DNA of 64,000 nucleotides from an uncultured bacterium. GTDB lineage: Bacteria; Patescibacteriota; Minisyncoccia; Moranbacterales; GWC2-37-73. Location: positions 21,220 to 85,219 of the forward strand of contig CAISKQ010000060.1 of the NCBI GenBank assembly GCA_903885965.1. Direction: 5' to 3'. Under the pieces are notes generated by a model, which worked only from the letters and a program-made list of their open reading frames with translations, was not told the DNA's origin and ran no database searches. This document shows, piece after piece, positions 468 through 52,490 of the stretch. How positions within the stretch are numbered: position 1 is the first letter of the stretch; every line of letters begins with the position of its first letter. A program made the position numbers and the translations under genes.

Positions 468-2585
468 TTATTTTAAATAAAATTTTAAACAATTATAATA
501 CTTTTTAATAAACTTGTCAGGGGAGGAAAATGCAAATTTAACTTTATTTTTCCATTTTTCAATATCAATACGTCTATTTTGCTTATGAAATTGTACATCT
601 TGACCATATCTTCGAAAAAATTCGTAGTTAATATGTTCTAAATATGTACAAAATCTCCATCTTTCCATTATTTTTTTTGTGTCAAGCTCTTTTTCCATAA
701 GATTGCACAGAAACACTTCCGTTTCTTTGGCGACATTTTCCCAACTATTAAAAGAAGTCATTGAGCCAGTAAGATCATGATGATATTCAATTTCATTTTC
801 AATAATAATCCTGAGTTCTTTAAAATAATCAAAGAAAACAAAGTTATCTTTAAAATCAGGATGCATTTCGAGAAGTTCCCTGCTTATAGCATTATTAAAA
901 ACGATTATTTTTTTATTGTAAGAAAGAGCTTTAATTATTGGAATACCAAATCCCTCATATTGACTTGGAAAAATAAGAAGTTTACATTTTTTATACAAAA
1001 ATTCAACAAAATCTGGAGATAAATTTCCGCTCTTGAAACAATAGGTATTTCTTGCGACATTAATTCCATCCCTCTCAAGCTCATCCTTCCCTATCCCCAA
1101 AATAACAACGTTTGCATTTAATCCTCTAATACCCTCAATGGCTACTGGTATTGACTTGTGCTTAAAATGGTTACCAAGCATTAGAACAAAATCTTCATCT
1201 TTAAACATCTCAATATTATCATCCTTCCTCATATCTATAGCTTTTCTTTCCTTATCAATACCAAGATGTATAGTTTCTATAGGCGTACTAAAGTTAGCTG
1301 TATTAATATTACCAACATATGCCAATGCGTCATACTTGCTAAAATCACTTATTGATATTATTCCATCAGCATACTGAAGTGAATAATTTAATGCAAAATC
1401 TCTCTCATCATTATTAAGATAATTCGATCTCCACGCAATCACGTCAAGCAATGAAAATACCACCCTTAAGGCCAAGCGATTCATCAAAACCAGCTGTTCC
1501 ATTTTAAAAATTTGTGATGGCATAATAGCGATATCAAATCTTTTTTCTATTTTTTTTATGTTTTCATTATAAACAACTCTGTCATATTTTTTTAGCAACC
1601 CATGAAAAAGTACCCCCTGCTCGTTAGACAGAATAGTAATCTCATATTTATCCCCAAATAGTCTAACAAAAGAATTAAGCAGTGATAAACTGTATTCTGA
1701 TGTGCCATTATGCGTCGATGGCAGATTGTATAAATTAAATAAAATTCTCTTTTTTGAATATACGCCACATACAATTTCCGAAAAATAATCAACCGGATTA
1801 ATACCATCAATCAGATATTTCCTAACTGCGTTGAGATATTCGGGGTAGCGACCTTGCAATATTAGCTCATTTTTTTCATTTAAAATCTTTTTTTCAGCAG
1901 ATGTAAAAGATTTGCCTTCAATATGATAAACAAATGCGTGATTAGCCATTGCAATCGAATAACCAAATTTATTTATCCTGCAGCAAAAATCATTTTCTTC
2001 ATTATATCCTTTTCCATATATCTTATCAAATAAACCAAAATTTACTACAAGATTACGACGAATTAGCATACAAAAACCAACGCCTGTTGGAATAATTGAA
2101 AATTGTGGTAATAGTTTTTTCAACTTTTCATGAAAGCCAAGGGATTCATTAATGATATCCATTCTTTCACCATCATATCTAAATGGCACTGATAAAATTG
2201 TTGCGTTATTGCTACGAGGGCAGACAACTCCATGTTTCTCACTCAAATAAAGCACACTGGTCATCTCATCCAAAAAACCCTCCGTTACTTCAGTATCCGA
2301 ATTAAGCAATAAAATATCATTTTCCGTCTTATCAATCTCGAAAACACCCCTATTGCATGTTTTAACAAATCCAAGATTTTTTTTATTCCTAAAGTACTTA
2401 AAATTATCAAAAGTTTTTATTGCATTTTTAATTTTTATCTCTAAATCATCAGCTTCGGAGCTATTATCATTGATCAATATAACTGAATGTTTCTTATTCA
2501 AATATTTTTTTAATGAAGAAAGACACTTTTCAAGTGTCGCCCAATCTTTATAAATAGGTATGATCACTGTAACATTTTTTTTCAT
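468..2585 (-). CDS. Two-domain glycosyltransferase: N-terminal GT2-like domain fused to a C-terminal GT4 (Glycos_transf_1-like) domain.
   Basis: N-terminus VTVIIPIYKD...ILINDNSSE (GT2 Rossmann/DXD region). C-terminal part has FPSQYEGFGIPIIKALSYNKKIIVF (GT4 E-x7-E region). Confidence 0.65.
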   Translation of the reverse strand: MKKNVTVIIPIYKDWATLEKCLSSLKKYLNKKHSVILINDNSSEADDLEIKIKNAIKTFDNFKYFRNKKNLGFVKTCNRGVFEIDKTENDILLLNSDTEVTEGFLDEMTSVLYLSEKHGVVCPRSNNATILSVPFRYDGERMDIINESLGFHEKLKKLLPQFSIIPTGVGFCMLIRRNLVVNFGLFDKIYGKGYNEENDFCCRINKFGYSIAMANHAFVYHIEGKSFTSAEKKILNEKNELILQGRYPEYLNAVRKYLIDGINPVDYFSEIVCGVYSKKRILFNLYNLPSTHNGTSEYSLSLLNSFVRLFGDKYEITILSNEQGVLFHGLLKKYDRVVYNENIKKIEKRFDIAIMPSQIFKMEQLVLMNRLALRVVFSLLDVIAWRSNYLNNDERDFALNYSLQYADGIISISDFSKYDALAYVGNINTANFSTPIETIHLGIDKERKAIDMRKDDNIEMFKDEDFVLMLGNHFKHKSIPVAIEGIRGLNANVVILGIGKDELERDGINVARNTYCFKSGNLSPDFVEFLYKKCKLLIFPSQYEGFGIPIIKALSYNKKIIVFNNAISRELLEMHPDFKDNFVFFDYFKELRIIIENEIEYHHDLTGSMTSFNSWENVAKETEVFLCNLMEKELDTKKIMERWRFCTYLEHINYEFFRRYGQDVQFHKQNRRIDIEKWKNKVKFAFSSPDKFIKKYYNCLKFYLK

Positions 2586-2644
2586 ACATTATTGAAAAAT
2601 ATAATATTAAGGCTTAATTCCACGTGACGCTGCTGCGAAGAGAT

Positions 2645-3604
2645 TTATTTTAAATATTTTTTTATTTTTAAGTATTCAGTTCTTAATTTCCAAAATTTTG
2701 AAGATTTTACAAATTCAAATTCCTCATTCTTTTTTCTGAATTCTTCGTCTTTTTCTAGAAGTTTATTTTTCAAATTTTGAATTTCATTTTTTTGATTTCT
2801 AATTAGTAAAAATTCACTCTGTGTTTCATCTTCCTTTCTGTATAAATAATCATCTTGCTTAACCGTATTGCTCCATTTTTGCAAAAAAAGCTCTCGATTT
2901 TCTTTGTGCTTGTCACCCCTCCCCTCTGAAATGCTTTCGTAGTGATAGACGACGCTTTCAGGGCAATACATGATGTCACTTCCAAGTTCTCTGATTTTAA
3001 GACACAAATCAATATCCTCATATCCATTCAGAAAGTTTTCATCAAATCCGCCAACTTTGTCAAAAATTTCTTTGCGCACCAACATGCAAGCCGCCGTCAG
3101 CGCGTTGAACTTCCTTTTTTTATTCACATAATGCTTCTCTTTTATTTCTCTCGCATAAATGTGATATGGAATTTTATCCTCCCCAAAAACAACTCCCGCG
3201 TGTTGAATTGTTTCATCGGGAAAAAGGAGCTTGCTCCCAGCAATCGCAACTTCAATATTTGTTTCAAGTTCTTCAACTAAAACATCCAGCCAATTTTTAG
3301 TAACAACGGTATCATTATTCAAAAATAATAAGAATTCACCGCTTGCCACAGAAGCACCGACATTACAAGCCCTGGAAAATCCTAGATTCTTATCGCTATG
3401 AATTGTGATAATTTTTTTACCTAAACTATCCAAATAACCCCTTGTCCCATCGGATGATGCGTTATCGACGACAATGATTTCAAAAGTATATTTTGATCCA
3501 AATTTAAAAATACTTTCCAAACATTTTTGAGTATACTCCAATCTATTAAATACAGGTATAATTATACTTACTATCATAGAATATTGATTAAATAAGGATG
3601 GCAT
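2645..3604 (-). CDS. GT2 family glycosyltransferase with a C-terminal coiled-coil tail.
   Basis: IVSIIIPVFN, IIVVDNASSDGT, FLLFLNNDTVVTKNWLDVL, YEDIDLC (DXD-like). K/E-rich C-terminus. Confidence 0.75.
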   Translation of the reverse strand: MPSLFNQYSMIVSIIIPVFNRLEYTQKCLESIFKFGSKYTFEIIVVDNASSDGTRGYLDSLGKKIITIHSDKNLGFSRACNVGASVASGEFLLFLNNDTVVTKNWLDVLVEELETNIEVAIAGSKLLFPDETIQHAGVVFGEDKIPYHIYAREIKEKHYVNKKRKFNALTAACMLVRKEIFDKVGGFDENFLNGYEDIDLCLKIRELGSDIMYCPESVVYHYESISEGRGDKHKENRELFLQKWSNTVKQDDYLYRKEDETQSEFLLIRNQKNEIQNLKNKLLEKDEEFRKKNEEFEFVKSSKFWKLRTEYLKIKKYLK

Positions 3605-3629
3605 TTAAAATTATCAACATTAAAATAAA

Positions 3630-4988
3630 CTACTTTCTCCATATATGTTCTAACTTTATAATTCCATATTGATTTTTTTCATTCGATATTATTTTAAAAA
3701 CATATTCTCTATTTTTATAATCAAAATGAGTTGTTTCTTTATATTTTTCGTAAAGCGAAACCGATAGTTGATAAGATCCGCTGAATAATTTAATACTCAG
3801 CATCACAAAATCAACAAATCCATCTCCGTAAATATTGTTAATATCATATCTGGATGTTTCAGTGTTTGGCCCTGAAATATGAATGCCGTCTTGAGTATGA
3901 ATTGCGACACCAAAAACAGGGTTTTCTATTTTCTTTTTTGCATTGTAATGTATCCTCGCCACAATATCATCTCCTGACTCAAAAACATTTTTTTCTTTTC
4001 CATCTTTATCCAAAAATTCCACTTTTGTGATTTCTGCAATTTTATTTTTTCTTTCCTCCTCCTGTGTTGCTTTTTCTTCTTCAATTCTTCTTTTTTCCTC
4101 CTCCAAGTCCTTTCCTTTCAATTTTTTCATTTCTTTTTGAACTCGCATATCTTCTTGTTTCTGCTCCTTTTCTATTCTCCTTTCTTCATCTGACATGTTC
4201 TGATAAATATATTCGTTTCCGACTTCCTCAGGATCGCCAATTTTCACAATTTTGCCACTTCGAAGCAACATCGCCCGGTCGCAATAGCGCTGCACCACAG
4301 CGATGTCATGTGTGACAATAACAACAGTTCGCCCCATCTCCCGATATTTATTAAACTCCTCCAAACATTTTGATTGAAAATTTGAGTCACCCACTGCCAA
4401 GACTTCATCCATCAGCAAAATTTCGCGATTAGCGTGAATAGAAACCGAAAATGCAAGACGCACTTGCATTCCAGAGGAATAATTCTTGAGTTTTTGATCA
4501 ATAAATCTTTCCAATTCTGAAAAAGCCACAATAGCATCAAATTTTTTGTCGATTTCTTTTTTGGTCAGGCCCAGAACCGTGGCGTTGAGATACACATTGT
4601 CTCGACCAGAAAGTTCAGGATTAAAACCAATTCCCAATTCTAAAAATGGAGAAATTCGCCCTTTGATTTCAATCTTCTTCTCGGCTTTCCGAAGGTTCAA
4701 CCTTCGGTGTTCCGAAGGTTCAACCTTCGGATGCGCATCAGCGTCTGGTTGATAAATCCCAGCCAAAATTTTCAGTAATGTCGATTTGCCGCTTCCATTT
4801 CGCCCAATGATCCCAAAAAATTCCCCTTTTTTCACCTCAAAAGAAACGTCGTCAAGGGCTTTGAATTCTTCGAAGCCTCCACTTTTAAAAACACTCGTAA
4901 CCGCTCCTCTGAGAGAGGAGATTTTTTCATGCGGAATCCTAAATGTTTTTGAAACATTCTTTACGCTAATTGCAATATTATCTTCCAT
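3630..4988 (-). CDS. Polysaccharide/teichoic-acid export ABC transporter ATP-binding protein (Wzt/TagH-like) with a coiled-coil linker and a C-terminal Wzt_C-like carbohydrate-binding domain.
   Basis: Walker [10 protein letters not shown], signature [11 protein letters not shown], Walker [14 protein letters not shown]-loop VVIVTHD. 452 aa against about 250 aa for a bare ATPase. K/E-rich linker then a beta-rich tail. Confidence 0.8.
   Translation of the reverse strand: MEDNIAISVKNVSKTFRIPHEKISSLRGAVTSVFKSGGFEEFKALDDVSFEVKKGEFFGIIGRNGSGKSTLLKILAGIYQPDADAHPKVEPSEHRRLNLRKAEKKIEIKGRISPFLELGIGFNPELSGRDNVYLNATVLGLTKKEIDKKFDAIVAFSELERFIDQKLKNYSSGMQVRLAFSVSIHANREILLMDEVLAVGDSNFQSKCLEEFNKYREMGRTVVIVTHDIAVVQRYCDRAMLLRSGKIVKIGDPEEVGNEYIYQNMSDEERRIEKEQKQEDMRVQKEMKKLKGKDLEEEKRRIEEEKATQEEERKNKIAEITKVEFLDKDGKEKNVFESGDDIVARIHYNAKKKIENPVFGVAIHTQDGIHISGPNTETSRYDINNIYGDGFVDFVMLSIKLFSGSYQLSVSLYEKYKETTHFDYKNREYVFKIISNEKNQYGIIKLEHIWRK
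4688..4729. repeat. Two tandem copies of a 19-bp palindrome CCGAAGGTTCAACCTTCGG, separated by TGTT, embedded in frame in the Wzt ATPase CDS.
   Basis: Direct reading. Encodes an extra segment (...[24 protein letters not shown]...) between Walker A and the Q-loop region. A single copy occurs in the decayed paralog at 6603..6621. Confidence 0.85.
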
Positions 4989-5051
4989 CCTTCTTTATAT
5001 TTTATATAGTATCTTATATGGAATTAACTTGATCCATATTAGTTTACCTCC

Positions 5052-5083
5052 GAGCTAAGCTCCTGAGTACAGGAGCTTAGCTC
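5052..5083. repeat. Perfect 14-bp-stem hairpin GAGCTAAGCTCCTG-AGTA-CAGGAGCTTAGCTC upstream of the wzt start.
   Basis: Direct reading. No flanking T-run, so it is not a canonical terminator. Confidence 0.7.
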
Positions 5084-5152
5084 CATCCCAATATACTACT
5101 AATTTAGTTAAGTTGGTATCTTATATGGTACTTCACATCTATCCTCATCCAT

Positions 5153-5190
5153 CATTCCAAAACTCGACGACCGCATAGTTTTGGTATCAT
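5153..5190 (+). promoter_or_regulatory. Copy 1 of a 40-bp palindromic element (CCAAAAC-N14-GTTTTGG followed by TATCAT).
   Basis: Sequence tccaaaactcgacgaccgcatagttttggtatcat. Family of 4 copies. Confidence 0.5.
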
Positions 5191-5420
5191 TGATTTTTTA
5201 CGCAAAATAGCAACCCGCTATAACAAACTTCTGTTTTTTTCTCCCCTTTTCCCGCATAAATAAGAACAAGTCAACCCCATTAGGAATTCTTTTTATAAAT
5301 CAATACTATCATTATACCACCAAAAATGCAACGCGCATTTAACCCAAAATCAAGTTGAATAGCCCCTCCTTTGGTTATTACATGCGAGCGGCAATAATAC
5401 TAAATTTTTACCCCAATTTT

Positions 5421-5462
5421 ATTATTCCAAAACACGACGACCGCATAGTTTTGGCATAATGG
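5421..5462 (+). promoter_or_regulatory. Copy 2 of the palindromic element with a -10-like CATAAT.
   Basis: attattccaaaacacgacgaccgcatagttttggcataatgg. Confidence 0.5.
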
Positions 5463-5523
5463 AAAATATCGGTAAATTCACATAGCTTATCCACATCAGA
5501 TGTTTAGATTAAGCTTAATATCT

Positions 5524-5566
5524 GATTATTCCAAAACACGACGACCGCATATTTTTGGTATAATGG
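5524..5566 (+). promoter_or_regulatory. Copy 3 of the palindromic element with an extended -10-like TGGTATAAT.
   Basis: gattattccaaaacacgacgaccgcatatttttggtataatgg. Confidence 0.5.
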
Positions 5567-5609
5567 GGTATCTTACCCCACTTAAAACAACGCTCCTAAC
5601 GTCAAAGGC

Positions 5610-6164
5610 TTAATACAATTTGAATTTTAGTTTGAGCTCTTCCCCATTAGAGATGTTTACAACCTCGCCATAGCGAACAAGATTTCGAAGTTGAAAATAT
5701 TCCGTGATGAAATTAATTTCATCCAAACAAGGAAAAGGATGGATAAAAACAGATTTTTGAATTTCTTTAAAGCCAAGCTCTTTCAGTTTTTCCCGAAGAA
5801 CATTCCGCTCCGATCTTCTTTTCTCAGGAATATCAAACATCACAAGCCGCCATCGATTATCCCATTTCAAGGGTTTAGGAATCTTAATAGCATCTATTTT
5901 AAATTCAAGTGTTTTTAGCTTTCCTTTTTCCGTTAGCACAATTTTAGTAGTTCCATTTTCTTGTTCAAGATAATCCACCAAGCGTTCTTGCTTAAATTCT
6001 TTTACAGCCCGGTATAGATATTGCTTATTTATCTCGTGCCAATCGCGCTTGAGCGTTTTGAAAACATTCTTTTGCGACCTTGGATTATTTGCAAGTCCAA
6101 GAGCCACTCCTCCTGCAAGAAGAAGTAGTATCTTTCTTTTAATTGGGCTCCTTATTTCTTTCAC
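5610..6164 (-). CDS. PaaX-like transcriptional regulator (N-terminal winged-helix-like region plus a PaaX_C-like domain).
   Basis: DNRWRLVMFDIPEKRRSERNVLREKLKELGFKEIQKSVFIHP matches the PaaX C-terminal domain pattern (W..V.FDIPE..R..R..LR..L..LGF..LQ.SV%). Confidence 0.5.
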   Translation of the reverse strand: MKEIRSPIKRKILLLLAGGVALGLANNPRSQKNVFKTLKRDWHEINKQYLYRAVKEFKQERLVDYLEQENGTTKIVLTEKGKLKTLEFKIDAIKIPKPLKWDNRWRLVMFDIPEKRRSERNVLREKLKELGFKEIQKSVFIHPFPCLDEINFITEYFQLRNLVRYGEVVNISNGEELKLKFKLY

Positions 6165-6216
6165 CTTATTTACAATGAATTTATTTTTGTCTTTTTATTA
6201 TTCTTATTGAAATCCT

Positions 6217-6258
6217 CATTATACCAAAACAAGACGACCGCATAGTTTTGGTATAATG
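6217..6258. promoter_or_regulatory. Copy 4 of the palindromic element, here with TATAAT on both strands. It sits about 50 nt upstream of the PaaX-like gene start.
   Basis: cattataccaaaacaagacgaccgcatagttttggtataatg. On the minus strand TGGTATAAT precedes the ATG at 6164 by about 45 nt. Confidence 0.55.
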
Positions 6259-6296
6259 CTTGCTAAATATTTTCTGCAATCTTTGCTTTGAAAATT

Positions 6297-6882
6297 ACTA
6301 TCTCCCACTGCCAAAACCTCATCCATGAGCAGAATCTCGCGGTTGGCGTGAATCGAAACCGAAAACGCGAGACGAACTTGCATGCCGGAAGAATAATTCT
6401 TGAGTTTTTAATCAATGAACCTTTCTAATTCTGAAAAAGCCACAATGGAATCAAACTTTTCATCAATCTCTTTTTTCGTCAGCCCCAAAACCGTCGCATT
6501 AAGATAGACATTATCGCGCCCAGAAAGTTCCGGATTAAAACCAATCCCCAATTCCAAAAACGGGGAAATTCGCCCGTTGATCTCAATCTTTTTCTCGGCT
6601 TTCCGAAGGTTCAACCTTCGGGGATACGTCTTCGTCAGCCTGATAAATCCCCGCCAAAATTTTCAGCAAAGTGCTTTTTCCGCTTCCATTTCTCCCAATG
6701 ATCCCAAAAAATTCTCCTTTTTTCACCTCAAAAGAAACGTCATCAAGAGCTTTAAATTCTTCGTAACCTTTGTTTCGCTTGAACACGCTCACTGCTGCAC
6801 CGCGAAGAGAACTCACCTTTTCGTGAGGAATGCGGAAAGTCTTGGAGACGTGAGAGACTTTAATTGCGATATTATCTTCCAT
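6297..6882 (-). pseudogene. Decayed duplicate of the 5' about 600 bp of the wzt/tagH ATPase gene, frameshifted at the palindrome.
   Basis: ORF 6583..6882 ([22 protein letters not shown]...[19 protein letters not shown]) and ORF 6408..6614 in another frame (RISPFLELGIGFNPELSGRDNVYLNATVLG) are colinear with wzt residues 1-200. Nucleotide identity to 4380..4988 is visible. Homology stops near 6297. Confidence 0.75.
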
Positions 6883-6944
6883 CTATTTATTTTTCAATAT
6901 TTTTCCAGCATATTATACTGATTCATCACTGTTTTTTCATATAG

Positions 6945-8171
6945 CTACAATGACCAAGGATACAGATATTCCTTATTGAGAATATCACCCTCTAATGATA
7001 CTAGGTTATATTTTTTTATATTATACTTTTCTTGAAAATATCTCACTGCCGAAGGATTAAATTTATTAAAGTTAATCTTTGCCTCAATTGGCAAAAATGA
7101 ATTATTTTTTCGCAAAATAAAATCTATCTCTTTCTTATCTTTTGTTCTCCAATAAAGCACATTATCTTTACCATATTTTTTTACCAATTCTGAAAAAATT
7201 CCAGTTTCAAAAACATTTCCAATGATTTCTTTTTGCAAATTCTTGAGCCACAACATCTGCATAAGACCAGTATCATAAAAAAGTATTTTTGGAGTCTTAA
7301 ACAATTCAGATCTGATATTTCCACTATATGGATGCACGAGTTTTATTATATAGGTATTTTCCATAATAAAAAGGTATCTCTCAACTGTTGGCTTGGCTAT
7401 CTTGCATGTGTTTGACAATTCAGTGACATTTAAAAGATTGCCACTCTGTGAGGCCAAAACCTCCAACAATTTGTTAAATTTGTCTATATCCTTTATTTCA
7501 GCAAGATCCCTTATATCCTTACGCACATAGGTATCAATAATTTGTTGTAAATATTTTTCCTTTTTTTCTCTTTCCCTTGTCAAGACAATTTTTGGATATC
7601 CACCAAAAAGAATGTATTCCTTGAAAAGTTTTTTCAACTCATCTATTTTCTTTTGAGTAAAAACTTTTCCTTTTTCAAAAGGATACCCCTTAAATAATAG
7701 GAATTCAGTAAAGGATAAGCTAAAAATTTCAAAATTAACAGTTCTTCCAACCAATGAATCGCTAAATTTATTTTTTATTTCGAAACTAGAAGACCCTGAA
7801 ACCACAAGCTTTATATTCTTATGATGATCTGAAATTAATTTTAAAAAAGACGATGGATGTTGCAGATATTGAATTTCATCAATAAAAACATACAATTTTT
7901 TATTGCTAGTGGCACTCTTCTTTGCCTTATTTAATAATCCCTCTTCAGCAAGAAGGTCAATAAAGCTTTCAACTCCGGAATCAATAATAGCCACATATCT
8001 AGAATCTTCAAGGTCTATATAGAAAACTTGCTTTTTCTCTCTTTCTAGCATCTCTTTGAAATAATATAGTATGTGCGTCTTACCCACCTGTCTTGCCCCA
8101 TGCAAAACCACAATATCATCAGTATTGAGATATTTGCTTATTTCTGACGTTATTTCCCTCTTATAAAGCAT
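6945..8171 (-). CDS. AAA+ ATPase of the COG1373/DUF4143 family.
   Basis: Walker A HGARQVGKTHIL, Walker B LYVFIDEIQYL, and the C-terminal domain typical of DUF4143 ATPases. Paralog at 36748..37917. Confidence 0.75.
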   Translation of the reverse strand: MLYKREITSEISKYLNTDDIVVLHGARQVGKTHILYYFKEMLEREKKQVFYIDLEDSRYVAIIDSGVESFIDLLAEEGLLNKAKKSATSNKKLYVFIDEIQYLQHPSSFLKLISDHHKNIKLVVSGSSSFEIKNKFSDSLVGRTVNFEIFSLSFTEFLLFKGYPFEKGKVFTQKKIDELKKLFKEYILFGGYPKIVLTREREKKEKYLQQIIDTYVRKDIRDLAEIKDIDKFNKLLEVLASQSGNLLNVTELSNTCKIAKPTVERYLFIMENTYIIKLVHPYSGNIRSELFKTPKILFYDTGLMQMLWLKNLQKEIIGNVFETGIFSELVKKYGKDNVLYWRTKDKKEIDFILRKNNSFLPIEAKINFNKFNPSAVRYFQEKYNIKKYNLVSLEGDILNKEYLYPWSL

Positions 8172-8282
8172 TTTTTTAGATTTATTGCTACTTATACTAT
8201 AATTATAGTCGAACTTAAATCTATGTCAAGTGTAATTTAAGTTTGATGCCAGAAGAATAAACAGTTATTAAACTTCTTGTTT

Positions 8283-8433
8283 TTGAGTTTCTGATCAATG
8301 AAACGCTCAAGTTCCGAAAAAACCACGATACCCCTAAGAGAACTCACCTTTTCGTGAGCTTGTCTGCCGCCGAGGCAGGGATTTTGAAAGTCTTTAAGAC
8401 GTTTTTAACTGAAATAGCGATATCTTCATCCAT
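8283..8433 (-). pseudogene. Second, internally deleted remnant of the wzt 5' end.
   Basis: Minus strand encodes MDEDIAISVKNVLKTFKIP (wzt N-terminus). 8283..8330 matches wzt 4485..4535 and the remainder matches 6805..6882. Confidence 0.6.
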
Positions 8434-8640
8434 TTCTCTATTATAAAGGATTTTATTGATAAATTCAACTCTTTTCCACATTTCATTTTTCTCCACCCAA
8501 GGCGGACAGGCGCAAAAAGAAACCTGGAGGAAACCTGCATGTCGGCAGATAGGGAAAACTCTCGCACCGATTATCACATTACGAGTTATCTTACTGATAA
8601 TTTCAATATTTTAGACATTTTATTTTTAAATGGAAATGAA

Positions 8641-8672
8641 AAGAGGACTGTTTTTAGCAGTCCTCTGTGGTT
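8641..8672 (-). terminator. Rho-independent terminator downstream of the 8692..9183 ORF.
   Basis: AGAGGACTG-N7-CAGTCCTCT followed by TTTTCATTT on the minus strand. Confidence 0.5.
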
Positions 8673-8691
8673 GAAGATATTGTGAAATTTT

Positions 8692-9183
8692 TCATGCTTG
8701 CAGCCATTCGTCAGTGCCTCTTGGGGCAAATTTGACCGACACACCGAGTTCCCGCAATGCATCCTTATGCCAAATGATACTGCTCCTTATTTCAATCCTA
8801 TCTTCTGGCGAAAATGCATCATTGTTAAGCAAGATTAGCTTAAACTTCGGAACGTTTAGCGGAAGCCTTTCCATCTTATCCTGAAATTCTTCATATGAAA
8901 TCTTTGAGAATCCGACAACATTAGAATAAAAATCAGGGATTTCCGATTTTTGTCTTCTGGACGTCATGATTATATCTTCAAAAAATTTGCCAGCAGCTTT
9001 GAGAAAATTTTGATATTGATTGAAGGTAGATATGAGATATTTCCAATATTCCAAAACTTCTTTTTGCAATTTTAAGCTATTCTTCAGATTAACTCTTCTT
9101 GTCAACATAACAAACTCCCATCGCAATACGCGGAATTTTCCGCAATTAAAAAAACTCCAAACACTCGCAAAACAATACCACAC
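8692..9183 (-). CDS. Hypothetical protein; the true start may be an internal Met.
   Basis: ORF only. 1-nt overlap with the upstream giant gene. Confidence 0.35.
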   Translation of the reverse strand: MWYCFASVWSFFNCGKFRVLRWEFVMLTRRVNLKNSLKLQKEVLEYWKYLISTFNQYQNFLKAAGKFFEDIIMTSRRQKSEIPDFYSNVVGFSKISYEEFQDKMERLPLNVPKFKLILLNNDAFSPEDRIEIRSSIIWHKDALRELGVSVKFAPRGTDEWLQA

Positions 9184-24065: not shown

Positions 24066-24156
24066 GTGTCATACTGAACTTGTTTCAGTATCTACTCACT
24101 TTATTTCAGTCAGTTTGGTGCGTTAGAGATCCTGAAACAAGTTCAGGATGACATTT
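24066..24156. repeat. Paired palindromic hairpins (REP/BIME-like family), locus A.
   Basis: gtcATACTGAActtgtTTCAGTATc and gATCCTGAAacaagTTCAGGATgac, 45 bp apart. Confidence 0.7.
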
Positions 24157-36747: not shown

Positions 36748-37917
36748 TTAGAAAAAATTATCCGCTGTAATCAATCTCGTTTTCGCCTCTGGGTATCTAT
36801 TTTTAAAAGCCTTATTGACAGATCTTCTTTTGTATTTCACTTCCACGCCAATGATTTCTCCCTTTTTTTCCAAAACTACATCAATTTCAGAGCCTTGTTT
36901 TGTTCGCCAATAATAAAACTTCAAATTTGCATCACAATAACTATCTTGCTTTATCAATTCACTAATAATGAAGTTTTCGAACAAAGCCCCCTTGTCAGTC
37001 CGCGAATCCAAATCAGAGAAATCACCAATCAGGGCATTTCTGATGCCCGTATCATAGAAAAATATCTTTGCTGCTTTTGAAATTTCATCCCGCTTTTTCT
37101 TTGAATATGGATACAGCCGAAACAAAATAAAACTCTGCTCGAAAATTTCAATATAGCGTTTAATTGTCCGCTGATCAGCCTTTAAGCTACTGGCTAGCTC
37201 TGAATAATTTATAAGATTTCCAATTTGAAAAGCCAGCAACCTCAGCAAATCTTTGGCTAATTTCTTGTCCTCAATCAAATCCAATTCCAAAATATCCTTG
37301 AAAATTAAACTGTCCACGAAATTCAAAAGATATTTCTCATCGCTTGGACTATCTATTAAATGCGGATATTGCCCATAAACCAACACACCATCAAGAACAC
37401 TTTTCAAATCAAACCTGTAAAGCTGATCCCTGGGCTTGTATTTTTTATCATCTATTATTTTTTCAAGAATATTGAAATTCAGCTCTTTTTCAATTCCTTT
37501 CTGATTCAAATATTCAGAAAAAGTGAGCGGATAAATATTATAATCTATCTTTCTACCAGCCAAACTCTCCCCTGTTTTGTTTTTGATGTGAAAAGAAGAC
37601 GAACCTGTAATTATAATTCTCATCCCATCTAATTGATCATAGATTATTTTCACTGCCCTGCCAGGATTGCTCAAAAGATGAATTTCATCAATAATAATCT
37701 CTTTGGATTTTTCATTTATGAGCGTTTTGTAGGTTTCAATGTCATATGTTTCAAGAATTTTTCTAATAGGCTCGTTATCCACCAAAAAATAGGATCCTTT
37801 CGGAAATATTTTTTTGACCAAGGTTGTTTTTCCAACCTGCCTTGAACCAAGCAAGATAAGCACTTGCTTGTATTTTTCAAAATGTCGACTAAGTTTGAGG
37901 TCAAGATGTCTTTGCAT
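36748..37917 (-). CDS. AAA+ ATPase of the COG1373/DUF4143 family (paralog of 6945..8171).
   Basis: LILLGSRQVGKTTLV, EIIIDEIHLL, and the C-terminal domain typical of DUF4143 ATPases. Confidence 0.75.
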   Translation of the reverse strand: MQRHLDLKLSRHFEKYKQVLILLGSRQVGKTTLVKKIFPKGSYFLVDNEPIRKILETYDIETYKTLINEKSKEIIIDEIHLLSNPGRAVKIIYDQLDGMRIIITGSSSFHIKNKTGESLAGRKIDYNIYPLTFSEYLNQKGIEKELNFNILEKIIDDKKYKPRDQLYRFDLKSVLDGVLVYGQYPHLIDSPSDEKYLLNFVDSLIFKDILELDLIEDKKLAKDLLRLLAFQIGNLINYSELASSLKADQRTIKRYIEIFEQSFILFRLYPYSKKKRDEISKAAKIFFYDTGIRNALIGDFSDLDSRTDKGALFENFIISELIKQDSYCDANLKFYYWRTKQGSEIDVVLEKKGEIIGVEVKYKRRSVNKAFKNRYPEAKTRLITADNFF

Positions 37918-38006
37918 ATAAATATATTACTTTTTAATCATCTGATGTAACAAAAGATATATCTAATTATACACACACCACTTTTTTTGTCAAGCCATTA
38001 TGTCAA

Positions 38007-38036
38007 ATCTTAGCTAATTTGAGCCCTTTTGGCAAG
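38007..38036. repeat. Direct repeat copy 2 of the porB 3' end sequence.
   Basis: tcttagctaatttgagcccttttggcaagcat. Confidence 0.85.
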
Positions 38037-38147
38037 CATTAGAATTGTATAATGTATTTTGTATGATGTATAAAGTAGCTATGCGCTTCCCACGTCTATA
38101 CATCATACTTTCTACATAATGAAAAACTAACTTGTTTTTTCATCACA

Positions 38148-39635
38148 TTAAATACGGAATGGTTTCGAAAGTTCTTGTATGAACTTTTTTAATTTAATAA
38201 TTTCAACTTGCTCACCTGCTTGTGCAATTTTATCATGGTCAATCTGACTCGCTATTGCATTCCGATGAGACCCCAGGAGTGCTCTTTTTTTGTTTTTAGA
38301 TTCAGTTACTATTCCTTGCACATGTTGCTCACGCTCTGCCAAATTAAGTATTTTTGTATATCGCTCTAGTGCTTCTTTTCTTAGTTCTAAAAAAAATCCT
38401 TCGTCTTCAAGTCTGACAATCTTCTTCTTCCAATCCCTTAAAATCTCAAATTCCAATAAAGAAATTATTTGCTTCCTTGGCATGCCAAAGTTTTCCATTT
38501 TTTCTATCAAGGCTAAGCCATCAGAAATTCTTTTTTGATGGAGTTTTCGCTCTTTATCTATGAGTTGTATTTCCTCACTTTCAATATGCCATTCACTAAA
38601 AAATGCCACATCCGCTCCAAGATAATCATATAACCCGCCCTCCGACTGGCTTTCCAATAAATAAGCGCTGATTATATCAATAGGGGTTTCGTCTTTCAAG
38701 TACGCAAATATTTCGTCTCTTATTCTCTTATCGGCAATAAATCCAGTGTTAATAATATTAACTTCTACACAAAAATATTGAAAAGCTTTTGGAGAATTCG
38801 CCATAACCGCTTTAACTGTTTCATCCAACAGGCTCTTTAGCGTGTGCCTCTCTTCATGAATCCTAATTATTTTTTTTTGATCATCAGATAGCTCGCCACC
38901 TTTATTATTAATTCCAATTTTTTCGCCCCTTGCAAATCCTTCACTTTTCTCTGCCACCTCCTCTGATGCGTTATAGGCTTTTGCATAATCTCTAATGTCC
39001 TCACATTCCACAAGAAAAGAAGTAGCCCCTCTATCAATATGCACCTTCCCACACGGTTCTCCGTTGAATAATTTTAGAAATAATTCTTCGTCATCCTCTC
39101 CAGGAATTAGCGTCCCCTGTATTGAGTCCATTGTTTTATTCCGATCACAAAGGTGCCTCAAGAAAATACCATACCCTTGAATCTGAGCTGGGCTCAGTTG
39201 CAAGCCCGCTGAATAAGCAATGATATTTTCTTTCAATGTTTCTACTTTTTCACCAAACTTAAGCTGGTCATTCTCTTGAAGTAAGATATCCTCCAAATAA
39301 CAATTTAATTGTGAAATTTTGACAAACTGTTCAATAAATCTTTTTTTATATTCAACAATCCTTCGTGATTTTTCTGTTAAATATTCCTCCTGGGAAAGTT
39401 CTTTACGCTCGTCTTTGGTAAAATTATTTATTTTCTTTAATTCTTCTGCTGGATCAAAACATTCATATTGCTCAGCAATTAAAAAACTCTCATCCACACC
39501 CAACCATTCTCTTCCATACTTATTGTACTCATTCTTGTCTTCATATTCATCATCAAAAAAATCTAGCGCATACTCAACATCACTTTTCACAACGTCAGGA
39601 TTATTGTTTATATTTTCAAATACATTTCCACTCAT
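38148..39635 (-). CDS. Acidic hypothetical protein with an HExxH motif (possible metallopeptidase-like). The ORF-track start at 39701 reads through the porB stop, so the start here is the MSGNVF Met.
   Basis: IRIHEERHTL contains HEERH; no other family signature recognised. Confidence 0.4.
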   Translation of the reverse strand: MSGNVFENINNNPDVVKSDVEYALDFFDDEYEDKNEYNKYGREWLGVDESFLIAEQYECFDPAEELKKINNFTKDERKELSQEEYLTEKSRRIVEYKKRFIEQFVKISQLNCYLEDILLQENDQLKFGEKVETLKENIIAYSAGLQLSPAQIQGYGIFLRHLCDRNKTMDSIQGTLIPGEDDEELFLKLFNGEPCGKVHIDRGATSFLVECEDIRDYAKAYNASEEVAEKSEGFARGEKIGINNKGGELSDDQKKIIRIHEERHTLKSLLDETVKAVMANSPKAFQYFCVEVNIINTGFIADKRIRDEIFAYLKDETPIDIISAYLLESQSEGGLYDYLGADVAFFSEWHIESEEIQLIDKERKLHQKRISDGLALIEKMENFGMPRKQIISLLEFEILRDWKKKIVRLEDEGFFLELRKEALERYTKILNLAEREQHVQGIVTESKNKKRALLGSHRNAIASQIDHDKIAQAGEQVEIIKLKKFIQELSKPFRI

Positions 39636-39657
39636 ATGCAGTATGAAATTATTTATT

Positions 39658-40566
39658 TTAGCTAATTTGAGCCCTTTTGGCAAGCTTTTCGAAATTTTCA
39701 TTAACCGTCTTTTGAATTTCTTTAATCACCTCAAGATTTTTTTCTTTAAAGAGATGTTTAAAGCGTCCTTGGGTTTTCAGGAATTCTTCAATCGGCTTTG
39801 GCTCCTTCACAATATTATTGATGATATATTTTCCATCTTCTATTTCAAAAAGCGGCCAAAAATTAGTTTCAGTGGCAAGTTTTCCAATTGCAACATACTC
39901 CGAAGTTGGAAATTTCCAAATTTGCGTGCAAGGTTGCAAAACCAACAAAAAGGATGGACCTGGAGTGTTTAAAGCTTTTTGAGCTTTGCGTTTCAGGTCT
40001 GGCAGATAAGCAACATTAGCTTGGGCCAAATATTTGATCCCATGGGCTTTGACAATTTCCATCAAATCTTTGCGTTGCTGAGTTTTGCCAAATGACTGAC
40101 TGCCAACTGGAGCCGTTTCAGTGTTGGCGCCATATGGGGTTGCGCCACTACGCTGTCCTCCAGTGTTCATGTAGCCTTCATTGTCATAGCAAACATACAA
40201 AAAATCATGTCCGCGTTCGAGAGCACCAGAAAGCGCTTGCAGGCCAATGTCATAAGTTCCACCGTCGCCACCAAAAGCGATTATCTTGGCAGGATTTTTT
40301 AACTTTCCGGATTTTTCCAAAGCTTTTTGCGCCGCATCAATCCCGGCCGCGGTGGCTGCCGCATTGCCAAAAACACTGTGAATATATGGCACTTTCCAAG
40401 AAGTTGATGGATAAATCGTTGTTGTCACTTCAAGACAACCAGTTGCGTTTGAAACAATCACTTGCTCATCGGTTGCCCCCAGCACAGTCCGCACAATCGC
40501 CGGAATTCCACAACCCGCGCAAGTAGCATGACCAGAAGAGAATTTTTTGGTAAGATCTTTATTCAT
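39658..40566 (-). CDS. porB: Pyruvate/2-oxoacid:ferredoxin oxidoreductase beta subunit (TPP-binding).
   Basis: GHATCAGCGIPAI (Cys ligand region), GGDGGTYDIGLQALSGA (TPP-binding GDG). Confidence 0.85.
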   Translation of the reverse strand: MNKDLTKKFSSGHATCAGCGIPAIVRTVLGATDEQVIVSNATGCLEVTTTIYPSTSWKVPYIHSVFGNAAATAAGIDAAQKALEKSGKLKNPAKIIAFGGDGGTYDIGLQALSGALERGHDFLYVCYDNEGYMNTGGQRSGATPYGANTETAPVGSQSFGKTQQRKDLMEIVKAHGIKYLAQANVAYLPDLKRKAQKALNTPGPSFLLVLQPCTQIWKFPTSEYVAIGKLATETNFWPLFEIEDGKYIINNIVKEPKPIEEFLKTQGRFKHLFKEKNLEVIKEIQKTVNENFEKLAKRAQIS

Positions 40567-40626
40567 ATATAATACGGATTAGAACGAATTAATTACGGAT
40601 CGTCACAGATCACAAATTCACACAGA

Positions 40627-41055
40627 TTATAGATTTAATTTTAGTTTAGATATGAATGGTTTTCTATCATTTGTGCAAATAGATCTTTTTATTTCTAATT
40701 CTTGAGTACAAAAATTAACCAAATAACCAATTTCATATTTACTAGCTTTTAAATAAGATCTTTGCTGATTAATATCATCGACTCTCGTGAAGCTAGTCGC
40801 TTTAATTTCTACTATTATTTTATCTTCCACCAAAATATCTGGGACATATGTGCCTAATTTTTTTCCTGTTTCCAATGAATAAATATCGATTCTTTTTTGA
40901 CTTTCAAATTTTAAATTCTCTTTTTCCAATTCTTCTTCTAGGGCTTTTTGATAAATAATTTCTTTTAATCCCTTTCCGTATTTATTTGCAACATTATAAA
41001 AACATCCTCGCACTTTGTATGATAATTCTTTTTCCAATAGACCATCCTCGCTCAT
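40627..41055 (-). CDS. GxxExxY protein (TIGR04256 family, PD-(D/E)xK-like) inserted inside the por operon.
   Basis: GKGLKEIIYQKALEEELE (GxxExxY), then D...EIK (VEDKIIVEIKA). Confidence 0.7.
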   Translation of the reverse strand: MSEDGLLEKELSYKVRGCFYNVANKYGKGLKEIIYQKALEEELEKENLKFESQKRIDIYSLETGKKLGTYVPDILVEDKIIVEIKATSFTRVDDINQQRSYLKASKYEIGYLVNFCTQELEIKRSICTNDRKPFISKLKLNL

Positions 41056-41109
41056 AAAATATGAATCCGTGATTCGTGAACATTCGTCACAAATTCGTGA
41101 AGATCCGTT

Positions 41110-42279
41110 TTACACTAGGTATTTAACCTTATTATCAATCTCCCCATCTTCTAAATCCTTGAATACTTTTTCAATGTCCTTTTGCATCGTGTCGCGACCG
41201 CCGAGACCGTAAACATAACTGGCAAGGTCTGGCTTGCGACTTGAGCTGTGATAAAGGCTGCTCACAATATCTTGATAGAGCGGAGGATATGCCCCGAAGG
41301 AAATTGCGCGATCCAAAACAGCAATTTTTGGAATGTGGGACAAAACTGCACCAATTTCTGCGTATGGAAAAGGCCTAAACATCTTCACGCTAAGCAGGCC
41401 GACTTTTTTCCCACTCATGCGAAGTGCATCGACAACATCCTTGGCTGTCCCACCAGTGGCACCCATGATCACAATCACGCTCGTCGCATCTTGCAAATGA
41501 TATTGCTCGAACATTTCATATTTTCTGCCTGAAATTTTGAAAAATTCTCCGCAAATTTTTTTGTAAGCAAGCTTAGCTTTTTGCATCACTTTTTCTTGAT
41601 CAAGCTTGAATTCAAAAAAAGTGTTTTGCAGCGCCAGGGTTCCAAAAGTTGTCGGATTCTCAAAATCAGTCAGCGATTGCTGCACTTTCCTCTCGCCCAC
41701 AAACTCTTTCACAACTTGATCATCCAAAATTTCAATTCTTTCGGTAGTGTGGGAAGTGTGAAAGCCATCCATGATTGGCATCACAGGAGCGCCAATTTCC
41801 TCAGCAAGCTTAATCGCAATAATTGTGTCATCATAAGCGTCCTGCACCTGCTCGGCAAAAATCTGCACCCAACCCAAATCTCGCACCGCCATCACGTCGC
41901 CATGTTCGCCGTGGATGTTCAGCGGTGCGCTGAGCGCTCGAGAGCTGACGCTCATCACGATTGGCAAGCCCAGCCCGCTGACCACCGGCAATGTTTCAGC
42001 CATGTATAAGATTCCTTGTGAACTTGAAGCGGTTACGGCCCGCGCTCCTGCAGCAGACGCGCCAATTGTTGCGCTCATTGCACTATGCTCAGATTCCACC
42101 TGCACAATCTCAGCCTCAACCAGACCGTCAGCTTTCATTTTCGCATAAGTTTCAATAATAGTGGTTTGGGGAGTGATTGGATAAACCGCCATCACATCCG
42201 GTCGAATTTGCCTCCAGGCTTCAGCAACCGCATAGCCGCCAGTCAATGCTTTAATATTTTTGTTTTTCTTATTAGACAT
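41110..42279 (-). CDS. porA: Pyruvate:ferredoxin oxidoreductase alpha subunit.
   Basis: LTGGYAVAEAWRQIRPDVMAVYPITPQT; about 390 aa, typical PorA. Confidence 0.85.
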   Translation of the reverse strand: MSNKKNKNIKALTGGYAVAEAWRQIRPDVMAVYPITPQTTIIETYAKMKADGLVEAEIVQVESEHSAMSATIGASAAGARAVTASSSQGILYMAETLPVVSGLGLPIVMSVSSRALSAPLNIHGEHGDVMAVRDLGWVQIFAEQVQDAYDDTIIAIKLAEEIGAPVMPIMDGFHTSHTTERIEILDDQVVKEFVGERKVQQSLTDFENPTTFGTLALQNTFFEFKLDQEKVMQKAKLAYKKICGEFFKISGRKYEMFEQYHLQDATSVIVIMGATGGTAKDVVDALRMSGKKVGLLSVKMFRPFPYAEIGAVLSHIPKIAVLDRAISFGAYPPLYQDIVSSLYHSSSRKPDLASYVYGLGGRDTMQKDIEKVFKDLEDGEIDNKVKYLV

Positions 42280-42283
42280 AATA

Positions 42284-42613
42284 TTATTTTTTCATAATTA
42301 TCGCTTTCACTGGACAGACTTGTGCGCAAACTCCGCAACCCTTGCAATATTCATAATCAATCACTGCTAAGTCTTTTTCTTTTGCAAATTTGCCACTAAT
42401 TTCAACTTCTGCCTCACTACGCTTTCGCATTTCCATAACAGCCTCAGGACAATGTGGCACACAAGTGCTGCATCCGATGCACTTTGAAGCATCTACTTCG
42501 GGCTTCATATAGCGCCAATCTCCTGTTTTTGGCGCCTTAGTTTGGTCATGATTTATAATTGCTCCTTTTTCCATATTGGTACTAATTTTCACGAATTTAT
42601 GACTGATTTTCAC
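42284..42613 (-). CDS. porD: Pyruvate:ferredoxin oxidoreductase delta subunit (2x[4Fe-4S] ferredoxin).
   Basis: CIGCSTCVPHCP and CKGCGVCAQVCP. Confidence 0.8.
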   Translation of the reverse strand: MKISHKFVKISTNMEKGAIINHDQTKAPKTGDWRYMKPEVDASKCIGCSTCVPHCPEAVMEMRKRSEAEVEISGKFAKEKDLAVIDYEYCKGCGVCAQVCPVKAIIMKK

Positions 42614-42675
42614 GGAGCACGGATATCCGTGATATGTGTCAATCCGTAATCAATCCGTTTCTATCCGTTAAGTTT

Positions 42676-43248
42676 TTAGAGTTCATCAAACCCAGCCTCC
42701 ATTGCCTGAATATTTTTTTCTGTCAATTCCTTGCCTATTTTTTCCAAAAATACACCGCGAAAAACTTCCGCTGCACTTTCCAGAGAAACAACCTCAGTAA
42801 TCTTAATCAATTGTCCAACTAAAACCATATTTGGATTTGAGCTCCCGGTTGTTTGACTTGCCAGCCCATTTGCATCAATCGCATAAATTTTTCCCTTGAA
42901 ATGTGGCACGTCTTTTCTGATTTCCTCACTATCCCTTTTTGAATTTATAATCAAAACTTCGTGCCGATCAAGATTTTTTGCAACATCCTGACTTCCAATA
43001 ACAGTTTCGTCCATAATCACAACCGCGTCAGGATCCGTGACTGGCTCTTGCGTTCGAAGCGGCTTGTCAGAAATGCGCAAAAACATCTTAGTAGGAGCGC
43101 CTGACCTTTCTGGACCAAAAAAAGGAAAAGCTTTCACAAATTTTCCTTCATTGACAGCCGCATGCGCCACGAGTTCAGAAGCAGTCTTAGCTCCTTGTCC
43201 CCCACGGGCAAAAAAGATTATTTCAAATGTATCTTTGTTTAGTTTCAT
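42676..43248 (-). CDS. porG: Pyruvate:ferredoxin oxidoreductase gamma subunit.
   Basis: IIFFARGGQGAKTASELVAHAA, typical PorG N-terminus. Confidence 0.8.
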   Translation of the reverse strand: MKLNKDTFEIIFFARGGQGAKTASELVAHAAVNEGKFVKAFPFFGPERSGAPTKMFLRISDKPLRTQEPVTDPDAVVIMDETVIGSQDVAKNLDRHEVLIINSKRDSEEIRKDVPHFKGKIYAIDANGLASQTTGSSNPNMVLVGQLIKITEVVSLESAAEVFRGVFLEKIGKELTEKNIQAMEAGFDEL

Positions 43249-43334
43249 TTTTGTTTTTCTGAAGCTTTATCGTTTTAACTCTTTTCATTTTAGCATATTT
43301 TACTAAATCTGACACACTGCCAATTCTGAACCCT

Positions 43335-44297: not shown

Positions 44298-44374
44298 AAG
44301 TTTTAGTGATATTTTTTAAAAGTATAACACTCTATTTAGCATTATCCGCTAAATAGAGTGTTAAATGCAAGAAA

Positions 44375-52377: not shown

Positions 52378-52490
52378 AAACTTTTGTCATACTGAACCTG
52401 CCTGCCCGCCTTTGGAGGGTTTCAGCATCTACTTCCTTTGCATAAGATAACTTCCTGCATGCAAGATCCTGAACTAAATTCAGGATGACA
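52378..52490. repeat. Paired palindromic hairpins (REP/BIME-like), locus C. The first hairpin carries a GC-rich 20-nt loop insert.
   Basis: gtcATACTGAAcctgcctgcccgcctttggagggTTTCAGCATc and gATCCTGAActaaaTTCAGGATgac. Confidence 0.65.

Follow-up and report, generated by a model that had tools for sequence, protein, structure and literature searches.

Iterated 5′ ends of a wzt-type gene in a Candidate Phyla Radiation bacterium as probable scars at an accessory-gene hotspot

The 64,000-nucleotide stretch of DNA analysed here (the window, in whose positions all coordinates are given unless another locus is named) comes from an uncultured Moranbacteria-type bacterium of the Candidate Phyla Radiation (CPR). 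It carries a live wzt/tagH-type gene, encoding the ATPase of an ATP-binding cassette (ABC) transporter, and upstream of it two further, damaged wzt 5′ ends with unrelated genes in between. How did one locus come to hold three beginnings of the same gene, and are the genes between them the cause or the passengers? A preliminary description had taken the damaged copies for decayed duplicates of the live gene, produced either by cassettes that duplicate their target or at a recombination hotspot driven by embedded palindromes. We consider it probable, at about 0.6, that the wzt 5′ ends are stacked recombination scars at a hotspot for accessory-gene insertion just upstream of wzt.

The wzt 5′ ends and their divergence

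The three wzt copies and the two genes that separate them are as follows.

3630-4988, minus strand: live wzt/tagH-type ABC transporter ATPase gene; 452 aa, with a conserved ATPase half and a variable Wzt_C domain
5610-6164, minus strand: PaaX_M/Cas2-like regulator-like gene; 184 aa; Pfam PaaX_M 1e-21
6288-6894, minus strand: long wzt 5′ stub (copy 2); codons 1-206 of a different wzt allele, recently inactivated
6945-8171, minus strand: DUF4143 AAA+ ATPase gene, type a; 408 aa; Pfam AAA_14 and DUF4143, with a C-terminal PD-(D/E)XK-type domain
8278-8433, minus strand: short wzt 5′ stub (copy 3); codons 1-31 joined to codons ~150-170; older

In its anatomy the preliminary description was right. 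An intact wzt is accompanied by two partial 5′ copies that are homologous to it at the nucleotide level (blastn E-values: copy 2, 5e-151; copy 3, 1e-5; tblastn E-values: copy 2, 5e-65 and 5e-45; copy 3, 3e-5 and 2e-4). The ends proposed for them, 6297..6882 and 8283..8433, lie within about 10 nt of ours, the short copy is indeed internally deleted, and the PaaX-like and DUF4143 genes do lie between the copies, all three of which are in direct orientation. The long stub extends from about 12 nt upstream of its ATG (6882) to codon 206 and aligns with 4374-5002 over 632 nt at 78% identity, including ungapped blocks of 300 and 175 nt at 84-85%. Its lesions are a TAA stop at 6408-6410, a frameshift caused by the disappearance of one of the 23-nt palindromic units, so that a single unit is left, and truncation past ...DSNFQ(SK); the in-frame form with two units is retained by the live wzt and by a copy in another genome. 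The short stub contains a 25-nt palindromic insertion at 8359-8383, its similarity to wzt continues weakly to about 8455, and a promoter-like site lies beside it at 8468-8440. No exact core sequence is common to the three window copies.

The preliminary description had allowed that an assembly artefact might explain the repetition. This is unlikely, because two assemblies that probably stem from one sample, the ENA scaffold of 85,977 bp and a separate one from Logan, match the window at 100% over 12-15 kb (the region is on 7 contigs) and because the wzt copies are 15-22% divergent. Nor was there population heterogeneity of note in the contigs of L141-L148, which are 96-99.8% collinear with trivial differences in gene calls.

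The divergence between the long stub and the live gene built up under purifying selection. The 105 differences fall 16/11/78 by codon position (dS, 1.36 synonymous substitutions per site; dN, 0.068 nonsynonymous; dN/dS 0.05), and within codons 104-206 a nucleotide divergence of 16% is accompanied by just 3 amino-acid changes and one stop. Since a copy left to decay in place would be expected to show a dN/dS of about 0.5, almost all of this divergence accrued while both were functional genes in separate lineages. Stub/live pairs in L028/L085 and L021 behave alike, with omega values of 0.02-0.10 and stub translations that remain nearly intact. Moreover, each window copy has its closest counterpart in another genome: the long stub is ~90-93% identical, in its 3′ part, to the live wzt of a metagenome-assembled genome (MAG) from Kiruna (L028/L085), and the closest copy to the live wzt of the window is a stub of L085. 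Because of this affinity and the low dN/dS, the long stub and the live wzt are different alleles brought together by horizontal recombination, and not in-place duplicates.

The same comparison can be made for pooled repeats around DUF4143 cassettes, where differences fall 31/24/88 by codon position. The third-position share of 61.5%, against ~45% expected for in-place duplication with a neutral stub, points to copies that would have come from different alleles and then undergone some decay. With 78 of 105 differences at third positions in the window, a stub/live difference that is almost purely synonymous, and each copy nearer to another genome's, neither in-situ decay of duplicates of the live gene nor cassettes that duplicate their target can be upheld. 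The wzt alleles are trans-specific and mosaic. In L017, stub and live gene match at 100% over some 200 nt, after which the stub decays abruptly; this indicates recent gene conversion between the two. In an 'allele coherence' test of a reciprocal single crossover (Campbell, or ends-in) against displacement, the alleles proved too mosaic to separate the two.

The wzm–wzt slot, its cargo and its palindromes

All genes of the wzt locus (3630-14007) lie on the minus strand. The permease gene wzm is 8.2 kb upstream of the live wzt, whereas in most relatives it adjoins wzt. In order of transcription, wzm is followed by a small membrane open reading frame (ORF), an LCAT/lipase-like gene, orf163, the short stub, the DUF4143 gene, the long stub, a 47-nt palindrome, the PaaX-like gene, three further palindromes, the live wzt and two glycosyltransferase genes. 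The features not listed above are:

13231-14007, minus strand: wzm permease gene, upstream backbone
12732-13160, minus strand: membrane ORF, upstream backbone
9183-12713, minus strand: gene for an LCAT/lipase-like protein of 1176 aa, upstream backbone
8692-9183, minus strand: orf163, upstream backbone
6213-6259, minus strand: fourth 47-nt palindrome, just upstream of the PaaX-like gene and adjoining the end of the long stub
5146-5192, 5416-5462 and 5520-5566, minus strand: three 47-nt imperfect palindromes between the PaaX-like gene and wzt
4681-4731, minus strand: two tandem 23-nt units inside the live wzt, each with the palindrome CCGAAGGTTGAACCTTCGG

Stubs of this kind recur in a consistent position. 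Among 81 related loci (loci compared, including metagenome loci, are labelled L001-L148), extra wzt pieces are present in 12, and in 10 they are upstream, same-strand 5′ pieces. Such pieces occur in L006, L013, L015, L017, L021, L025, L028/L085 and L055, in L010, where the wzt leader and the first 16 nt of wzt stand in three copies, and in the metagenome loci L087, L089, L091, L098 and L136-L148. The stubs are at most 248 aa long, none reaches beyond the conserved ATPase half, and most span fewer than 80 codons. Both in the window and in L085 the upstream (older) stubs are shorter or more decayed. Direct adjacency of wzm and wzt is the rule in most Saccharibacteria and in many other loci, and shows the ancestral state. 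Moranbacteria-type loci instead have a variable slot between the two genes, whose cargo includes DUF4143, Schlafen/AlbA_2-HATPase_c_4, NYN, toxin-antitoxin, MNT/HEPN, zeta toxin, DUF3800, 23S-rRNA-IVP, IS200-type transposase, PaaX-like and AbiE genes and, in L021, MBOAT and AlgX-like glycan-modifying genes. The earlier suggestion of a recombination hotspot is borne out by the extra wzt pieces in 12 of 81 loci and in L136-L148; its other part, that palindromes drive the hotspot, is not. A special role for DUF4143 at the hotspot is not supported either: Schlafen-like, NYN, MNT/HEPN, AbiE, Fic, IVP, IS200 and MBOAT/AlgX genes are arranged alike, and most DUF4143 insertions have no flanking repeat.

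The 47-nt palindrome has four matches in the window against none expected, all of them around the PaaX-like gene. Orthologues of this gene, 71-77% identical, are found in L007 and L098, and the PaaX-like genes of relatives are each bracketed on both sides by 2-6 palindromes of their own, which differ in their arms and have the core ACGGCCGT or GCGGTCGTC in common (L007 5465-6358; L017 4846-5759; L021 5681-6376; L055 2166-3321). Because counterparts surround every PaaX-like gene in the relatives, the palindromes are probably operators that co-evolve with the PaaX-like regulator, which probably controls both itself and wzt. They are confined to the surroundings of this gene and so are neither genome-wide repeats nor cassette ends. 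The gene product is not a PaaX repressor: it lacks the three-domain architecture, matches only through the PaaX_M/Cas2-like middle domain, and scores 29.5 bits with the PaaX equivalog model TIGR02277 against a cut-off of 264.55. Nor is the palindrome inside wzt supported as a breakpoint. Its two 23-nt units belong to an insertion, about 20 codons long and in frame, that sits at the ATPase's conserved 'DKG' turn and is shared by the 248-aa wzt copy of L085. With one kind of palindrome operator-like, the other far from the truncation points and neither kind coinciding with a stub end, recombination driven by palindromes is not supported.

In-frame, GC-rich palindromic insertions of 25-70 nt are seen at fixed wzt codons more widely (for instance at the 'DKG' turn and between 'IP' and 'HEK'), near codon 80 in L005, L013 and L021 and near codons 20-60 in L017, L089 and L098. 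Nested palindromes differ by lineage at the same codon, for example CCCCnGTGAAAT...ATTTCACGGGG, and the insertions are reminiscent of the in-frame palindromic elements of Rickettsia. The live Wzt itself matches Pfam ABC_tran (8e-22) and, at residues 310-445, Wzt_C (PF14524; 1e-26). Its Walker A, signature and Walker B motifs are all there, including LLMDE, and its scores with the NCBIfam TagH and Wzt models are under their cut-offs. Its best relatives, in Moranbacteria and Parcubacteria MAGs, are at most 72% identical.

Several further observations concern the locus and its cargo. The 23S-rRNA-IVP genes beside wzt stubs in L028 (435-936) and L055 (4942-5527) lie inside 40-54-nt AT-rich inverted repeats that resemble the stems of rRNA intervening sequences. 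In L017, an IS200-type Y1 transposase gene lies between the wzt stub and the live wzt (8329-10163). Upstream of wzm, a 41-nt direct repeat (14058-14098 and 16854-16894, 85% identical) encloses 23S-rRNA-IVP, epimerase and glycosyltransferase genes. A family-2 glycosyltransferase (GT2) gene at the far end of the glycan cluster, located at 131-439 and in DNA past the window start (L001 14550-15359), is broken into ORFs of 102 and 163 aa and is probably a pseudogene. An Rfam scan of 3000-14500 returned nothing relevant.

How the stubs may have arisen

The ATPase-coding 5′ half of wzt is the most conserved DNA beside the highly variable slot, and would provide a homologous anchor. Incoming DNA from related lineages would bring upstream cargo together with its own wzt 5′ end. 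On the right-hand side it would be joined by homologous recombination inside wzt, and on the left by an illegitimate join within or before the resident wzt 5′ region (homology-facilitated illegitimate recombination, or 'displacement'). The resident 5′ end would then stay behind as an upstream stub, while downstream a wzt that is complete but partly foreign would be restored. For the window, a first event may have brought in a segment with the DUF4143 gene and an 'alpha' wzt, cutting an early wzt down to the stub at 8278-8433. A second segment, comprising an operator, the PaaX-like gene, three operators and the present wzt, may then have cut alpha near nt 620-660 and left the stub at 6288-6894. 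The sequence PaaX-operators-wzt is the canonical order in the relatives L007, L017, L021 and L098. Both this mechanism and the entry of the DNA by natural transformation are our inference.

That no stub outgrows the conserved ATPase domain is to be expected if the right-hand crossover must fall in conserved wzt DNA, and the mixed cargo, of kinds usual for defence or selfish genes, favours recombination as a general process over the action of a single element. The locus also has several hallmarks of a displacement array: the repeated part is the conserved part of the anchor gene, the copies come from different alleles, and polarity and age order are consistent. Displacement would account for the short upstream stubs, their differing alleles, the greater distance of the older stubs and the arbitrary cargo, and is the simplest process to do so.

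Several points weigh against this explanation. No genome with an empty site or an intermediate arrangement was found, exact-protein look-ups returning the same arrangement only. Searches for homologues gave a copy in L085, at 92%, as the nearest to the stub and, among 5.8 billion proteins, 72% as the nearest to the live Wzt, and a close relative of the organism was absent from the collections searched, so that the order in which the events occurred is one that we infer. Several junctions between stub and cassette lie 0-15 nt from the −35 box of the cassette or 2-8 nt from its stop codon, which is tighter than random illegitimate joins would be. Successive cassettes in L041 and in an array at porB, described below, share one stub boundary, and these constant boundaries look either site-specific or inherited through unequal homologous recombination. 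Mosaicism obscures which of stub and live gene is 'recipient' or 'donor'. Synonymous divergence could, moreover, follow a duplication of any kind if the allele of the live gene were replaced afterwards. Finally, DUF4143 genes are enriched at wzt starts; together with the tight junctions and the constant boundaries, this keeps the idea of dedicated cassette insertion alive.

That idea is, in our view, unlikely but deserves a full hearing. DUF4143 cassettes, and maybe others, would be discrete mobile elements that insert at conserved gene ends by a dedicated mechanism (their own ATPase-nuclease or a recombinase supplied in trans), either duplicating the target or carrying a replacement end, so that the stubs would be akin to attachment (att) sites. 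The features that bear on it, besides the type-a gene, are:

8202-8243, minus strand: promoter of the type-a cassette, its own perfect sigma-70 promoter, with TTGACA-16-TATAAT at 8229-8202 (consensus match 12/12)
36748-37917: DUF4143 gene, type b, the second window copy

Both DUF4143 genes have the Pfam domains AAA_14 and DUF4143 and match full-length the PADLOC candidate phage-defence family PDC-S01 (E-values of 7e-82 for 6945-8171 and 1e-112 for 36748-37917), to which we assign them as defence candidates only. DUF4143 has been placed in the PD-(D/E)XK superfamily (PMC3424549), and the nuclease-motif residues (SEID...VExK) are invariant in the DUF4143 alignment, as would suit an element with an enzyme of its own. 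As the preliminary description had noted, each of the two genes is flanked on both sides by repeats of the end of a neighbour, in one case the wzt stubs and in the other three copies of the end of porB. The survey of other DUF4143 loci that it had called for showed such direct repeats at 5 of 7 evaluable genomic loci, compared with 25 of 272 control genes, a significant association. Type b has 41 metagenome relatives at 70-95% amino-acid identity, and the flanks in which they occur are of more than 25 kinds. Of the 41, 11 stand immediately upstream of a wzt-type gene, and about 9 of 31 evaluable ones have repeats derived from the local gene (porB 3′, wzt 5′, wzt 3′, GT2 3′ or histidine-kinase 3′). 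All type-a relatives, at 80-89% amino-acid identity, occupy the wzm–wzt slot and have a wzt stub on at least one side, in some cases on both (L136-L148). Set against this, type-b loci go without a flanking repeat in some 60% of cases or more, and the youngest event in the window brought the PaaX-like gene, not DUF4143.

The repeats themselves speak on both sides. At porB, a stretch of 31-34 nt from the very end of the gene, its stop codon included, is present in three places (39655-39688, 38006-38040 and 36695-36728) at 94-100% identity with sharp edges in blastn; a tblastn search for porB duplicates returned nothing, the repeat being detectable by blastn only. These copies enclose orf517 (unannotatable, ~490-517 aa) and the type-b DUF4143 gene, with a tRNA-Thr gene next to them (36570-36643), and L086 is arranged alike. 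Stub boundaries are constant within this array and within that of L041. This near-exact repeat, unlike the wzt case, looks to be of att type. Across loci, however, repeat length varies from 31 to 620 nt, the three wzt copies share no short exact junction core, and repeat copies differ chiefly at synonymous sites. A transposon or insertion sequence with target-site duplication finds no support in these figures: the repeat length is not fixed, and the third-position share is 74% in the window and 61.5% in the pooled set against the expected ~45%. Among the ORFs scanned at 468-14478 there was no transposase domain and no tyrosine or serine recombinase (IntI-type included), the latter also lacking at 36748-45424, and no inverted repeats bracket the cassettes. 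The ends of type-b cassettes show a weak, AT-rich resemblance over 10 nt that is not significant.

The cassettes are conserved from the −35 box to the stop codon, which would fit a discrete element. Synonymous sites between cassette copies are saturated, however (proportion of synonymous differences, pS, 0.67-0.85), and the sharp edges may mark the end of selective constraint; we therefore withdrew them as proof of precise mobilisation. For the same reason high DUF4143 amino-acid identity across lineages and phyla was withdrawn as proof of recent transfer. Homologues ~70% identical to the 6945-8171 protein turn up in Nitrospirae, Deltaproteobacteria, Elusimicrobia and Brocadiaceae; for Wzt, the best match of this organism is no closer than 72% even within its phylum. 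The type-a promoter, its −35 box bracketed by the inverted repeat AACTTAAAT/ATTTAAGTT, is conserved in L136, L140 and L141-L146, and the type-b promoter is TTGACA-N17-TGTATAATTAGATATATCT (37918-38005; L038, L041, L087-L123); both are strongly conserved despite the saturation of synonymous sites. DUF4143 promoter palindromes are AACTTAAAT/ATTTAAGTT or AGATATATCT, and the conservation of promoters and leaders suggests that these genes may be tightly autoregulated. The most ambitious version, that DUF4143 (PDC-S01) genes are autonomous single-gene mobile elements in which an AAA+ ATPase fused to a PD-(D/E)XK nuclease homes to conserved gene ends, above all the wzt start, and regenerates the interrupted end while leaving stubs, strikes us as distinctly doubtful. 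If true, it would define a new class of mobile element doubling as a defence gene, with long, variable gene-end repeats as its signature.

Nor can much credence be given to switching of glycan type (serotype), in which the whole downstream part of the cluster (the wzt specificity domain and the glycosyltransferases) would be replaced, the left junction falling by chance in the old wzt and the right far downstream, so that the stubs would represent earlier glycan types. Genomes that share ATPase halves at 80-90% nucleotide identity do indeed have unrelated Wzt_C domains and downstream glycosyltransferases, wzm is 96% identical to that of L026 while wzt is just 77%, the DNA from stub to live gene in L021 encodes the glycan-modifying MBOAT and AlgX-like enzymes, and the broken GT2 gene lies downstream at 131-439. 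Random junctions in a 1.3-kb gene would often leave longer pieces, however, and all of the at least 13 stubs end in the ATPase half, most in the first 80 codons; the cargo, moreover, is mostly defence-like or selfish and not glycan-related. This explanation would differ from displacement only in the site of the right-hand crossover.

It is very improbable that the partial copies are kept silent as a gene-conversion reservoir for the live wzt, in the manner of pilS. The 200 nt of conversion in L017, the mosaic alleles and the nearly intact stub translations are what such a reservoir might leave behind, but the repeated part is the cytoplasmic, highly conserved ATPase half, in which variation has no obvious benefit; the copies differ minimally in amino acids, and in the stubs there are stops, frameshifts and internal deletions, with decay of the older ones. 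In-situ tandem duplication followed by decay, or misassembly, would suit the direct orientation of the copies and can otherwise be dismissed as almost certainly wrong, given the unrelated genes between them, a dN/dS of 0.05 at a dS of 1.36, the greater similarity of the copies to those of another genome than to each other, and agreement of two assemblies at a divergence beyond what an assembler would collapse or expand.

Elsewhere in the window, a PD-(D/E)XK_3 gene (PF13366; 40627-41055) lies between porA and porB, a small selfish-type gene parting a normally contiguous pair. A 72-nt element occurs three times (24082-24153, 32953-33024 and 52419-52490), starting with GTTTCAG and ending with the hairpin GATCCTGAAACAAGTTCAGGATGACA, and ARAGORN reports a tRNA-like gene at 29808-29883 with the two-base anticodon '(ca)'.

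Relation to known systems and significance

Sequential displacement by homology-facilitated illegitimate recombination was proposed for effector-immunity arrays of type VI secretion systems (T6SS) in Vibrio cholerae and for Rhs loci with rows of orphaned 3′ regions (PMC5361080). The wzt locus resembles these and the arrays of contact-dependent inhibition (CDI) systems in that a conserved gene part would anchor the incoming DNA and the displaced module be left as an orphan, in its ordering by age, and in copies that come from other lineages and not from duplication. It differs in polarity: what is orphaned in the Rhs, CDI and T6SS systems lies downstream and consists of variable 3′ tips or immunity genes, whereas the wzt pieces are conserved 5′ ends upstream. 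The displaced pieces are, furthermore, without evident function, the genes inserted upstream as cargo are unrelated ones, and the setting is a glycan-export ATPase gene of a CPR bacterium.

Other comparisons are partial. Defence-island hotspots flanked by core genes are an established concept, and the wzm–wzt slot is likewise a fixed site with differing defence-type genes (PDC-S01/DUF4143, Schlafen-like ATPase, NYN, MNT/HEPN, AbiE, zeta toxin and DUF3800), but it parts a normally contiguous operon pair and retains iterated stubs of one flanking gene. Islands at tRNA genes and SCC elements at the 3′ end of rlmH form cassette arrays parted by direct repeats of a conserved gene end, with cassettes that have no recombinase of their own; the porB array and L041 fit this pattern. 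No recombinase was identified, however, and the wzt repeats are 160-620 nt long and 78-85% identical, with variable end points and no exact core. Like the free-standing homing endonuclease genes of phage, DUF4143 genes are compact, nuclease-containing and bounded by promoter and stop beside conserved coding sequence, and the mosaic flanking alleles at wzt could reflect co-conversion as it occurs there. Homing endonucleases leave no duplicated gene ends, however, and the DUF4143 cassettes occur in many unrelated contexts, cleavage of a target being hypothetical.

The type of process is thus already known; what is new is to find probable scars of displacement at a hotspot, where both the host and the site are unusual. 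To our knowledge, CPR bacteria are unculturable and almost nothing is known of how they exchange genes. The stubs offer a readable record of successive DNA acquisitions in such a bacterium. The wzm–wzt junction emerges as a lineage-wide hotspot for candidate anti-phage genes, situated beside the genes that build a glycan which is a probable phage receptor, and the conserved half of an essential-type gene appears to serve as the landing pad. Should the mobile-element explanation prove true, a role as mobile elements would fall to the DUF4143 ATPases, which are very abundant. Stubs of this kind provide a simple sequence signature by which hotspots may be located, and events dated, in other streamlined genomes.

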